Source: Naegleria gruberi
Taxonomy: Eukaryota
Direction: 5' to 3' (one strand)
Assembly (NCBI GenBank): GCA_000004985.1
Contig: GG738880.1
Length of the DNA stretch: 64,000 nucleotides
In this document: positions 26,601-29,302 of the stretch, in pieces
Layout: every line of letters starts with the position of its first letter
Numbering within the stretch: position 1 is the stretch's first letter
The notes under the pieces: generated by a model
Seen by the model: only the letters and a program-made list of their open reading frames with translations
What the model was told of the DNA's origin: nothing
Database searches by the model: none
Made by a program: the position numbers and the translations under genes

Positions 26601-29302
26601 CATTTAATCCTGCTATTGTTAGATCTGCCATAGATCTTGGTATCTTGATTTTGAACCGTGGTGATAAGGCAATACAGGATGAGTTTTATAGAATATTGAC
26701 AGAAACTGACTCGTCCTACTTCTTTGAATCATTGAGAGATAGAATCCGTCTTGGTAAGACAGAAATCAAGGAGAGAAAGAATTACCTCAAGAAGAAAAGG
26801 GATAAAGACTATGCCTTGTTCAAACAACGTCAAAGACAAGAAGTTGCCAAGGTTCGTGCTAAGGATGAAAATGATTCCTCCCGACCAATGGAAGAGGAAG
26901 AAGAAAGAGATTTACAAGAGGACTTTGTTGAAATGGGACATATTGAATTACTTTTCGAGTTTTTGAGACTTTTATGTGAAGGACACAATGTTGAAATGCA
27001 AACACTTCTCTTAAATCAACCAGTTAATACTCTGAACGTGAATGTTGTTACAGAAACAATTGAATATATGATTGCTCTAGAGAAAAAGATTGATTTTGAT
27101 AACGTTCAAATTGCTATTCAAGGTTTCAAGACCTTGACAGAATTCATTCAAGGCCCAGCTCTTGTCATCCAACAAGCTATTGGTACTTCTCCGAGATTCT
27201 ACGCCAGACTGGTCAATGAAATCATGTCTAAAACATATGAAGATGGAAACTTGCTAAAACAACAAGAACTTGGATTGAAGAGGGAAGTTTTACTTACTCT
27301 CAATGCTCTTCTAGAAGGAATGAACAATAGTGTATTTGATTTTATGAGACATTCCCTGAACTTTGATGAATTGGAGCATTTCCTTTTGTTCTCTGCCAGA
27401 TTTTTGCATTCTCTAGAAACCAAACATGAGAACTCTGATGCAAAGGACGAATACAATGAAATCAAGCAAAGGTTGAGAAGAGATTTTGATCATCACTTCC
27501 TTCATGAAGCCACACGTGACAAGGCTAATCCAGTTATTGCAGAAGATTACATTGCAGTCTATATGCCAATGATCAAGAATTTATTGAAAGAGACTGGTAA
27601 TTTTGCCTTTTTCTTGCTTAACATTTTCAGAGATGGTGAAAGAGAAAATTTGAGAAATATTTCAAGAAGTGCCTTTATTTCTGTAGAGGAAGAAAACAAA
27701 CTTTTAAGGATTACCAACATGTTGGATAATCATTCTCAATTAGTTTCAGTATTTTCCGAATCGACAGCAAGTATTGAAGTGTTGCGTGATAACAAGATTG
27801 AGAAGATTTACTTTTCCAAACCAACCATATGCAACAATTTGATGGACAAGGCAAGAAGTAATTATGTAAACTCTCTGGATGTCATGGCACCTGAAGAGAA
27901 AGTTCGTACTCTTTACAACCATACCTTCAGTATTTTCCAAGTTGAAATGGAGCATTATGAATTGATGAAGAAAAAGTCCACCATCAAGGATAAATTAGAA
28001 GATCTAGTTGGTATAGCCAACAAACACACAGAAGAAGTGACAGAGTTTGTGCCTACAATGGCTCAACTGAGAAATAAGTACAAGAGGAAAAAGAAACTCT
28101 CCATTGGAACTAGTTCTAAAAACAGGGACCAAACAGCAAGTTGGGAATTTATTGCTCACTGGTGGGACAGAATTCGTTTATTATCTTTTATATTTTGTGT
28201 GGTTCTTAACATTTTCGTTTTAGGATTTTTGAAGAGACTCTACTCAGCAAACACAGTAGATGACATTCCAGTACCTGGAGATTTGGATTTTGATATTACG
28301 TTGGCATCAAAATATCCTACAACAAGAAATTTGGCTGGTGATATTATTATAACTATTCTGGGAGCCATTCAATTGATAACAACAGCATCATTGGCCATTA
28401 TTTACGCAAAAGTTTTTATTACTCTTGAAGTGAAGAAGAGATTCAAACTCAAAAAGAGAGAGAAATGGGAAAATATTCCAAGAAATAGAGAATTCTATTG
28501 GAAATTTATCTTTTACGCACTTCAAGATTTACAAATGTGGTTCTTTGTACTGTACTTTGTTCTCAGTGTATTAGGATTATTGATATCTCCAATAGTTTAC
28601 AGTATTCAATTGTTCGAAATTGTTTTCAGATTTAAGAGTTTGAATGACGTGTTGAGGGCTGTCATTTCCAATGGAAAAAAGCTCTTTTTTGCAGGCATGT
28701 TACTTGGAATAACCATGTTCTTGTTTGGATTGCTATTCTTCTCATGGTTCTCTAATGATTTCACACTTGAATCTAATGGAACAAAAACATGTGAAAGTGT
28801 GTTGGAATGTTTTGTGACAATGTTTGACTATGGTTTCAGAAGTGAGTCATCATGGGAAAATATGTATCCACACAATCCAACTGTTGGAAGGGCCATCCTA
28901 GACTTGGCATTTAACATGATTGTAATCGTGTACCTTTCTAACGTTGTGTTCGGTACAATTCTAGATTCTTTCCAAGAATTGAGAGCAGCAAGAGAGGAAC
29001 GTAAGAATGAAATTAGAGAAAAGTGCTTTATATGCGCTCTGGAAAAGAGTAAATTTGATACAAAAGCCAATGAAGGAATTACCTTTGAAAAGCACATTAA
29101 GGAAGAGCATTACTTGTGGAATTATGTCTACTTTTTAATTTACTTGTACGAGAAACCTGAAACTGAATATACAGGTGTTGAAAGTTATATTTTCGAAAAG
29201 TGTGAGGAGAATGATGATGTAACAAGCTTCTTCCCAATATTTAGGTCTAAAACAATTGAGGAAAGCGAACAAACAAAGGTTTCATTAGGAGGATCGGATT
29301 AA
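20633..29302 (+). CDS. Inositol 1,4,5-trisphosphate receptor / ryanodine-receptor-family Ca2+ release channel, about 2.8k aa; exon 1 is 20633..~20830 and exon 2 is ~21056..29302
   Basis: Seen: exon 1 (the 92-aa ORF in the track) matches the IP3R N-terminus (LHYGDFISLFTESSGGSIGFLSVDGININCN vs human [31 protein letters not shown]). After an AT-rich stretch the large ORF resumes the alignment (PPTYMISNFQQCVFQVCYPKSYSALKKY vs [23 protein letters not shown]). The C-terminus has a 6-TM block and the IP3R gatekeeper region (KCFICALEKSKFD...[37 protein letters not shown] vs human [53 protein letters not shown]). Two intron models are phase-consistent: 20831..21055 and 20898..21053. The exact boundaries are therefore uncertain. 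Confidence 0.8.
20831..21055 (+). other. Intron between IP3R exons 1 and 2, about 225 nt; alternative model 20898..21053
   Basis: An AT-rich, low-complexity stretch interrupts conserved IP3R N-terminal sequence. Both GT...AG models keep the frame. The first model avoids translating the low-complexity VSLSKLNNFNNLIKLIINTLII. Confidence 0.45.

Follow-up and report, generated by a model that had tools for sequence, protein, structure and literature searches.

A Naegleria gruberi channel of the IP3R/RyR superfamily lacks the glycine-rich selectivity filter and groups with heterolobosean relatives that share an aromatic-glutamate pore loop

The stretch of DNA analysed here (hereafter the window) comprises 64,000 nucleotides (nt) of contig GG738880.1 of the Naegleria gruberi assembly GCA_000004985.1 and carries, on its plus strand, a two-exon gene for a 2824 amino acid (aa) protein of the superfamily formed by inositol 1,4,5-trisphosphate (IP3) receptors (IP3Rs) together with ryanodine receptors (RyRs). 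At the position where the pore of animal IP3R1 displays the selectivity filter GGGVGD this protein, used as the query below, reads ESSWEN, and loops of a related kind are found throughout a clade of its closest relatives. The gene is organised as follows:

20633-20826, plus strand: exon 1 (aa 1-65), opening at the ATG of its open reading frame (ORF) and ending in phase 2; it codes for the first part of the suppressor-like beta-trefoil, EYLHYGDFISLFTE...GFLSVDGI
20827-21021, plus strand: intron of 195 nt, AT-rich, GT...AG, with the AG at 21020-21021
21022-29302, plus strand: exon 2 up to the TAA stop, holding an uninterrupted ORF from 21059 to 29302

Exon 1 measures 194 nt and its end reads ...ATTCAAGG, directly followed by GTTTGT with the GT donor at 20827. 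Splicing restores the frame: once 20633-20826 is joined to 21022-29302, there are 2825 codons and the only stop is the terminal one. Orthologues of the channel protein are colinear with it at 40-58% identity, the one from N. fowleri (XP_044564172 cluster, P0153) aligning with query aa 20-2823 at 49.7% and the one from Willaertia magna (KAL9648721) with aa 5-2814 at 40.3%. These colinear alignments support exon 1 and the two-exon model, and with them the inclusion of exon 1 in the conserved N terminus, which had been proposed in an earlier note made by a model from the letters of this DNA; the exon 1 region can be aligned to the IP3R1 N terminus as well. A second channel paralogue within the window was rejected, as tblastn matched the gene itself only.

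Pfam profiles recognise in the protein, and in the order typical of the superfamily, N-terminal beta-trefoils (Ins145_P3_rec, E = 2.9e-17; MIR, 3.7e-14), RIH in two stretches (RYDR_ITPR, 7e-28), RIH_assoc (E = 1.8e-21) and a C-terminal Ion_trans domain (E = 2.9e-09, covering 28352-28990), so that the family assignment of the earlier note stands. No Pfam match to SPRY or RyR-repeat domains was obtained at E <= 0.01, and the length of 2824 aa is about half the ~5,000 aa of RyRs. The predicted architecture is that of an IP3R-type member of the superfamily, with the suppressor-like trefoil, MIR, two RIH stretches, RIH_assoc, six-transmembrane channel and C2H2 zinc finger of the metazoan ITPR1-3 (~2,800 aa), which are also the best sequence matches in the PDB: by phmmer, the C-terminal 500 aa hit ITPR2, ITPR1 and ITPR3 at E = 1.8e-41 to 4e-39, while RyR1-3, with a homologous channel domain and C-terminal domain (CTD), follow at ~1e-30 to 1e-32. 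The C-terminal likeness to metazoan IP3Rs that had been noticed by eye is real, and the N-terminal 848 aa match IP3R ligand-binding-domain structures at E ~1e-35. Outside the pore itself, the parts of the protein map as follows:

21137-22714, plus strand: N-terminal beta-trefoil region (Ins145_P3_rec and MIR), from Pfam and from alignments to IP3R1 ligand-binding-domain structures
22946-23542, plus strand: first stretch of the RIH domain (Pfam RYDR_ITPR), including the helical half of what would be the IP3 pocket
26936-27202, plus strand: RIH-associated domain (Pfam RIH_assoc) with two Ca2+-sensor glutamates
28673-28759, plus strand: transmembrane helix S5, aa 2616-2644 (helix 179-207 of the AlphaFold model)
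29024-29110, plus strand: C-terminal C2H2 zinc finger, C2733-x2-C2736 ... H2756-x4-H2761, aligned to CFICGL...HIKEEH of IP3R1

The channel domain (aa 2438-2824) was modelled as a monomer with AlphaFold2 on the basis of a 19-sequence alignment, with a mean predicted local distance difference test score (pLDDT) of 77.7; a single-sequence model (pLDDT 48.6) was unusable and discarded. Foldseek comparison of the model with chains of RyR1/2/3 and IP3R1/3 returned a probability of 1.0 and query-normalised TM-scores of 0.5-0.59, with RyR2 as top match. The zinc-finger columns C296, C299, H319 and H324 are invariant in the alignment of homologues. Altogether, the model, Foldseek and the C2H2 columns point to the channel fold of the superfamily, with S1-S6 and a pore helix, S6 being long and the CTD containing a zinc finger. 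In the zinc-finger region the clade described below has a conserved three-residue insert, FD-TKANEG-ITF as compared to FD-NKT-VTF in animal IP3Rs, which is also present in the metagenome homologue P0001. A low-complexity stretch rich in Ser, Ala and Thr (SEGATNSPSPSGTGASLSASSATKLSNAS) lies in the central regulatory region, at aa ~1625-1665 (window ~25700-25820).

Homologues were collected with HMMER by searching 1.84 billion representatives exhaustively, which yielded 4212 matches, and the comparisons reported here use the best 150 of these. The pore itself comprises the following elements:

28799-28840, plus strand: pore helix, aa 2658-2671, VLECFVTMFDYGFR (model helix 221-234), which follows the invariant Cys2655 and ends in Y2668 and R2671
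28844-28861, plus strand: selectivity-filter segment ESSWEN, at the position of IP3R1 G2546-D2551 (GGGVGD) in HMMER, profile and MAFFT alignments
28862-28882, plus strand: luminal linker MYPHNPT from filter to S6, 4-5 residues shorter than in IP3R1 and non-helical in the model (residues 242-248)
28883-29020, plus strand: pore-lining helix S6 with its cytosolic extension, aa 2686-2731 (model helix 249-294)

The protein contains FRSESSWEN, of which ESSWEN forms aa 2673-2678 and is encoded by GAGTCATCATGGGAAAAT. HMMER aligns the query (CESVLECFVTMFDYGFRSESSWENMY) with ITPR2 without a gap from the pore-helix Cys through the filter. The same register is found in the phmmer alignment with 149 homologues, where RSESSWEN falls on RSGGGVGD, and in a MAFFT alignment with the vertebrate IP3R1-like sequence P0053, in which a deletion of 4-5 residues follows the filter and none lies inside it. 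In agreement with this, the AlphaFold model puts ESSWEN in the loop that leads from the pore helix (end at aa 2671) to S6 (start at aa 2686). With the IP3R1 filter numbered 2544-RSGGGVGD-2551 (PMC9663519), R2544 and S2545 correspond to R2671 and S2672, G2546, G2547 and G2548 to E2673, S2674 and S2675, and V2549, G2550 and D2551 to W2676, E2677 and N2678. All six filter residues thus differ from GGGVGD. Regular-expression searches gave no match to GG.G[DE], G[GAS][IVLM]G[DEN] or G.G[DE] in the whole protein, to the first two of these in six frames of 28500-29300, or to GGG[IVL]GD in six frames of the entire window, and a hidden exon or another frame carrying GGxGD was rejected on these grounds.

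The absence of a canonical GGVGD or GGIGD, with FRSESSWEN at the pore loop within 28750-29000, had been the central claim of the earlier note, which left it undecided whether the filter chemistry differs or its by-eye alignment had slipped. The three alignments and the motif searches bear the claim out: the profile alignment that it had called for sets ESSWEN on GGGVGD within the Ion_trans match, the G-[GV]-[IV]-G-D-like motif that might have turned up elsewhere was looked for in protein and frames without a match, and the alignments, model and motif searches favour the different chemistry over the slip. It is scarcely credible that the motif is missing through an artefact, be it a slipped alignment, an overlooked intron or exon, an error in sequencing or a pseudogene. 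Apart from the caveat of the note itself, only PTVGR, loosely like GVGD, speaks for it; PTVGRAILDL was considered as a displaced filter and rejected, since the segment aligns to the start of S6, where its Arg falls on a conserved position (100% in the clade, 83% in other homologues). Three alignment methods and the structure model agree on the register, and a non-glycine loop is retained by the orthologues from three other sources (GESFWED in N. fowleri, SDSAFEN in Willaertia, AEASWEN in an ENA protein), which excludes chance or sequencing noise. By alignment and by model, then, the register is not shifted and the protein is really without a glycine-rich filter. The strict GGG[V/I]GD motif occurs in only ~40 of the 149 aligned homologues and therefore defines metazoan-type channels, not the superfamily.

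All top matches have a related non-glycine loop. They include proteins of Naegleria fowleri (XP_044564172, XP_044566730 and XP_044559953), N. lovaniensis (XP_044554696), Willaertia magna (KAL9648721, KAL9655967, KAL9643554, KAL9643987 and KAL9647381) and Heterolobosea sp. BB2, besides unnamed metagenome proteins, and the databases annotate them as hypothetical or 'MIR domain-containing' proteins only. At least three paralogue lineages are present in N. fowleri and at least five in Willaertia, and the loops of the paralogue groups read GGFWED, DGFFED/GGFFED, EGFLED/EAFLEN, GGWWED, NGFWED and GGGWD; GGxGD was not seen among the N. fowleri and Willaertia paralogues within the best 150 of the 4212 homologues. 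In neighbour-joining (NJ) trees built on 225 columns, a simple method, 19 non-redundant sequences form a clade with 93% bootstrap on all columns and 87% after masking of ten columns around the filter, so the clade is not circularly defined by its motif. The orthogroup made up of the query and its N. fowleri and Willaertia orthologues reaches 99%.

Column statistics were computed for the 19 clade sequences and for the 131 other homologues. The clade consensus is GGFWED, and its general form R-[SG]-x-[GSA]-[FY]-[WFL]-E-[DN] takes the place of R-S-G-G-G-[IV]-G-D. An aromatic or hydrophobic residue followed by E and then D, N or S is found in 18 of the 19 members. Within the clade, Y2668 is conserved at 94% and R2671 at 100%; position 2675 is F in 63%, position 2676 W, F or L in 57%, 15% and 15% (87% together), position 2677 E in 94% and position 2678 D in 63% and N in 26%. 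The corresponding six filter positions of the other homologues are G (66%), G (84%), G (75%), I/L, G (42%) and D (44%). The query fits the clade pattern Y-G-[LF]-R-x-x-x-x-[WFL]-E-[DN] with Y2668, G, F, R2671, W2676, E2677 and N2678, although ESSWEN differs from GGFWED at four positions, with Asn instead of Asp as the last residue. The comparison with protist homologues that the earlier note had suggested hence finds a non-glycine loop throughout the closest relatives; the feature, which the note had described for this protein, is not peculiar to it but the signature of a whole heterolobosean-type clade. What the query has in common with the clade members is a filter of the form [aromatic]-E-[D/N], the residue Y2668 and, in the zinc finger, the TKANEG insert.

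Two other clade loops depart from the consensus. Willaertia KAL9655967 (P0006) reads RSGGGWD, one residue shorter, with the glycine run kept and a Trp present, and may stand between GGGVGD and GGFWED as an intermediate; P0020, whose place in the tree is within the clade, has the further degenerate form RAMGSVEQ. Loops of the WE[DN] type also occur outside the clade, in the jakobid Stygiella (GGFWED) and the euglenid Ploeotia (EADWEN). Other Trp-containing pore loops (P-loops) were observed in deep-branching protists, namely in Ancoracysta (P0081, GAPTWID), a EukProt transcriptome (P0105, GPPVWEA), Ploeotia (P0098, DPPVWND), Diphylleia (P0122, GAPVWI) and Pygsuia (P0064, GGDWER), and these five proteins group apart from the heterolobosean clade. 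A sister relation of the clade to Stygiella and Pygsuia in a first NJ tree was unsupported (bootstrap 0-11%), and a common origin of the WED-type loops is not claimed.

Conservation extends to the gate. The residues that form the gate of IP3R1 are F2586 and I2590 (PMC9663519); in S6 of the query, F2708 falls on F2586, L2712 conservatively on I2590 and N2705 on the central-cavity N2583. Within the clade the S6 positions are conserved at 63% for N, 100% for F and 94% for G. The pore-helix cysteines, which are invariant, G2709 and D2713 are kept as well.

The site of Ca2+ activation is likewise present in sequence. E2051 lies in LLCEGHN (26978-26980) and E2105 in LTEFIQGP (27140-27142), and the third residue is found further downstream:

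29162-29164, plus strand: T2779 in PETEYTG, equivalent of the third Ca2+-sensor residue by MAFFT alignment

E2051, E2105 and T2779 are kept in the query and in all clade members aligned. We take their counterparts in the published RyR1 and IP3R3 structures to be E3893, E3967 and T5001 of RyR1, with T2654 in IP3R1, and the RyR1 context of the first glutamate, LLCEGHN, is presumably identical to that of the query. As the sensor triad is conserved, gating by cytosolic Ca2+ is likely.

The IP3 pocket looks different. Only two of the 11 IP3-contact residues of IP3R1 (R265, T266, T267, G268, R269, R504, K508, R511, Y567, R568 and K569) are identical in the query, namely K508 and R511. R504, K508 and R511 map to K734, K738 and R741, R504 being conservatively replaced by Lys, while Y567, R568 and K569 have become N794, E795 and S796. 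At the K508 position the orthologues of N. fowleri and Willaertia have N or Q. No alignment could be made for the R265-R269 loop in the query, where a possible KTGR is left, followed by an insert:

~22010-22237, plus strand: Ser-rich low-complexity insert, aa ~395-470, in the second beta-trefoil at the position of the IP3R1 R265-R269 contact loop

Length and sequence of this insert vary widely across the Naegleria and Willaertia orthologues. Because the pocket is not conserved, gating by IP3 is doubtful and 'IP3 receptor' is a name by homology only; a small-molecule ligand bound at the N-terminal trefoils as IP3 is in the animal receptors is unlikely. The description of the protein as a genuine ligand-gated release channel, given in the earlier note, consequently holds in part: the Ca2+-sensor residues are kept, most IP3-contact residues are lost, and Ca2+ release would be a putative role.

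The reading we favour, with a probability of roughly 0.6, is that the gene is intact and selectively maintained and encodes a tetrameric channel of the IP3R/RyR superfamily with a lineage-specific filter, whose acidic ring of Glu2677 would sustain a working cation release. Cations, Ca2+ putatively among them, would pass out of the store lumen into the cytosol. The filter of IP3R1 measures 7.5-10.7 Å across, and D2551, G2550, R2544, H2541 and S2545 together form its luminal Ca2+ site (PMC9663519). In the N. gruberi protein, the fixed negative charge of a wide filter would come from the four Glu2677 side chains, not from Asp2551 and glycine carbonyls as in IP3R1, and a second acidic ring may be provided by Glu2673, whose counterpart G2546 is where the IP3R1 filter is narrowest. 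In permeation models the preference for cations and divalents stems from fixed acidic charge rather than from a tight cage of carbonyls (PMC2995152). The Val/Ile position is taken by W2676, which probably lies behind the loop on the pore helix, against the conserved Y2668, and would thereby shape a glycine-poor loop. We propose that Asp and Asn are interchangeable at the last filter position because the neighbouring Glu is invariant.

Several points weigh against this reading. The filter loop has a low pLDDT (~57-66, model residues 231-250) in a monomer model, which does not fix the side-chain geometry; of the pore structure prediction that the earlier note proposed, the placement of ESSWEN between pore helix and S6 was thus obtained in a monomer, with a low-confidence loop. 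What can be said about permeation in any clade member comes from sequence inference alone. A canonical GGxGD heterolobosean paralogue may rank below the best 150 of the 4212 homologues. The query also leaves its own clade consensus at 2674 (G to S) and 2675 (F to S). Finally, Asn at the D2551 position could be disabling if Glu2677 does not compensate, and rat IP3R1 D2550N and D2550A are said to have proved non-conducting in work by Boehning et al. published in 2001 in JBC.

The same Asn and the reported inactivity of D2550N would suit a pore that is dead or auxiliary, the protein being a non-conducting scaffold or sensor, or conducting only in heterotetramers with Asp-bearing paralogues of the GGFWED type. 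The several paralogues that coexist in each species also fit such a role, as does the fact that the orthogroup of the query lies furthest from the consensus (ESSWEN, DSAFEN and EASWEN as compared to GGFWED). However, the ORF of 2824 codons is intact and colinear with its orthologues, and the orthogroup keeps the pore helix, the filter Glu, the Tyr-Pro after the filter, the S6 gate and the zinc finger, parts that are not expected to persist in a dead pore. Moreover, the N. fowleri orthologue has Asp, so that D and N interchange inside one orthogroup. We regard a dead or auxiliary pore as improbable.

An alternative that leaves conduction in place is altered selectivity, in which the channel would not be a classical weakly selective release channel but either a monovalent (K+/Na+) counter-ion or leak pathway or a highly Ca2+-selective pore with a four-glutamate site like the EEEE site of CaV channels. 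The replacement of six out of six GGGVGD residues would be in line with it, together with Asn at the equivalent of the critical Asp and two Glu rings at new positions; even conservative changes of the motif affect IP3R and RyR conductance (PMC2995152), and the authors of the Paramecium CRC study voiced the same doubt about their divergent filters (PMC3213138). On the other hand, the channel keeps both the sensor triad for Ca2+ and the gating apparatus of RyR/IP3R, as expected under Ca2+ feedback, and the best 150 of 4212 homologues showed no canonical paralogue from Naegleria or Willaertia that could carry Ca2+ release instead. Fixed-charge models, besides, give divalent preference for any wide acidic filter (PMC2995152). 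Altered selectivity in this sense appears unlikely, although ion selectivity may well differ from that of animal calcium-release channels, and a working release channel with the Glu2677 ring remains our preferred explanation.

Bacterial NaV and eukaryotic CaV channels offer a mechanistic lead here, being tetrameric six-transmembrane channels whose T-x-E-x-W P-loops use a Glu ring for cation or Ca2+ selectivity and a Trp that staples the filter. The order is E-x-W in those channels and W-E in the present clade, and the likeness is one of analogy only. When compared to RyR1-3, the E-D acidic pair of the clade resembles the pair in GGGIGDE but is displaced one position N-terminally, and the Gly run of RyRs is missing from the query.

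Divergence of the filter in protist homologues is in itself already known and has been reported since 2011. In the Paramecium CRC-I to CRC-VI series, filters range from the full motif to 'practically no similarity' in CRC-VI, and permeation was left open by the authors (PMC3213138); oomycete ITPR homologues carry GGGIGD or GGGLG(G/S) (PMC7399828). These are precedents for protist members with an incomplete or absent GGG[V/I]GD. Most of the Paramecium and oomycete variants nonetheless keep a GG[V/I/L]G core, whereas the aromatic-Glu motif belongs to another clade, where it forms a different and conserved alternative; localisation and functional data exist for several Paramecium CRCs, while the heterolobosean clade is known from sequences. 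The IP3Rs of the kinetoplastids Trypanosoma and Leishmania, which are discobans like the Heterolobosea and have the same superfamily architecture, keep a GGGXGD filter (PMC3194816), so the heterolobosean filter is not general to discobans. No paper on heterolobosean IP3R/RyR pores was found in the literature searched, nor any description there of an aromatic-Glu filter conserved across a supported heterolobosean clade, the family's main evolutionary survey having been outside that search.

A broader and tentative idea, to which we give well under even odds, is that the [FY]-W-E-[DN] P-loop represents a second, ancient pore type of the superfamily, one that is fixed in every heterolobosean paralogue, occurs also in a jakobid and a euglenid and is related to the Trp loops of Pygsuia, Diphylleia and Ancoracysta. 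Its permeation might then be unlike that of a glycine-carbonyl filter, for example through a CaV-like four-glutamate site of high Ca2+ affinity or through a non-Ca2+ selectivity. If this were true, Naegleria, with the pathogen N. fowleri among its species, would rely for store release wholly on channels whose pore chemistry the human host lacks; the divergent pore in all N. fowleri paralogues seen makes it a possible parasite-selective pharmacological site.

GGG[V/I]GD is treated as the permeation signature of IP3Rs and RyRs, and the clade retains pore helix, gate, zinc finger and Ca2+ sensor without the glycine run. It may therefore serve as a natural experiment on what the filter requires, fixed charge or backbone geometry, and it advises caution, homology alone being insufficient ground for annotating a protein of this kind as an IP3 receptor or a Ca2+ channel.

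The surrounding window has a GC content of 34% and is gene-dense, its neighbouring ORFs including a PAS-cyclase and leucine-rich repeat (LRR) ORFs. A second inositol-phosphate signalling gene lies ~16 kb from the channel gene, and further ORFs were recorded on both strands:

45559-48681, minus strand: ORF of 1040 aa with inositol polyphosphate 5-phosphatase, OCRL-like ASH and RhoGAP domains
35112-37637, plus strand: ORF in which an adenylate/guanylate cyclase catalytic domain comes after a PAS domain
9830-11842 and 11842-15759, both minus strand: two abutting ORFs, the upstream one with Kelch and many EGF/teneurin-type repeats, the downstream one with a GPS motif and an RGS domain

Genes of the PAS-cyclase type are greatly expanded in Naegleria. 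The two abutting minus-strand ORFs may be parts of one large gene resembling adhesion G-protein-coupled receptors, interrupted by an intron or by a change of frame.

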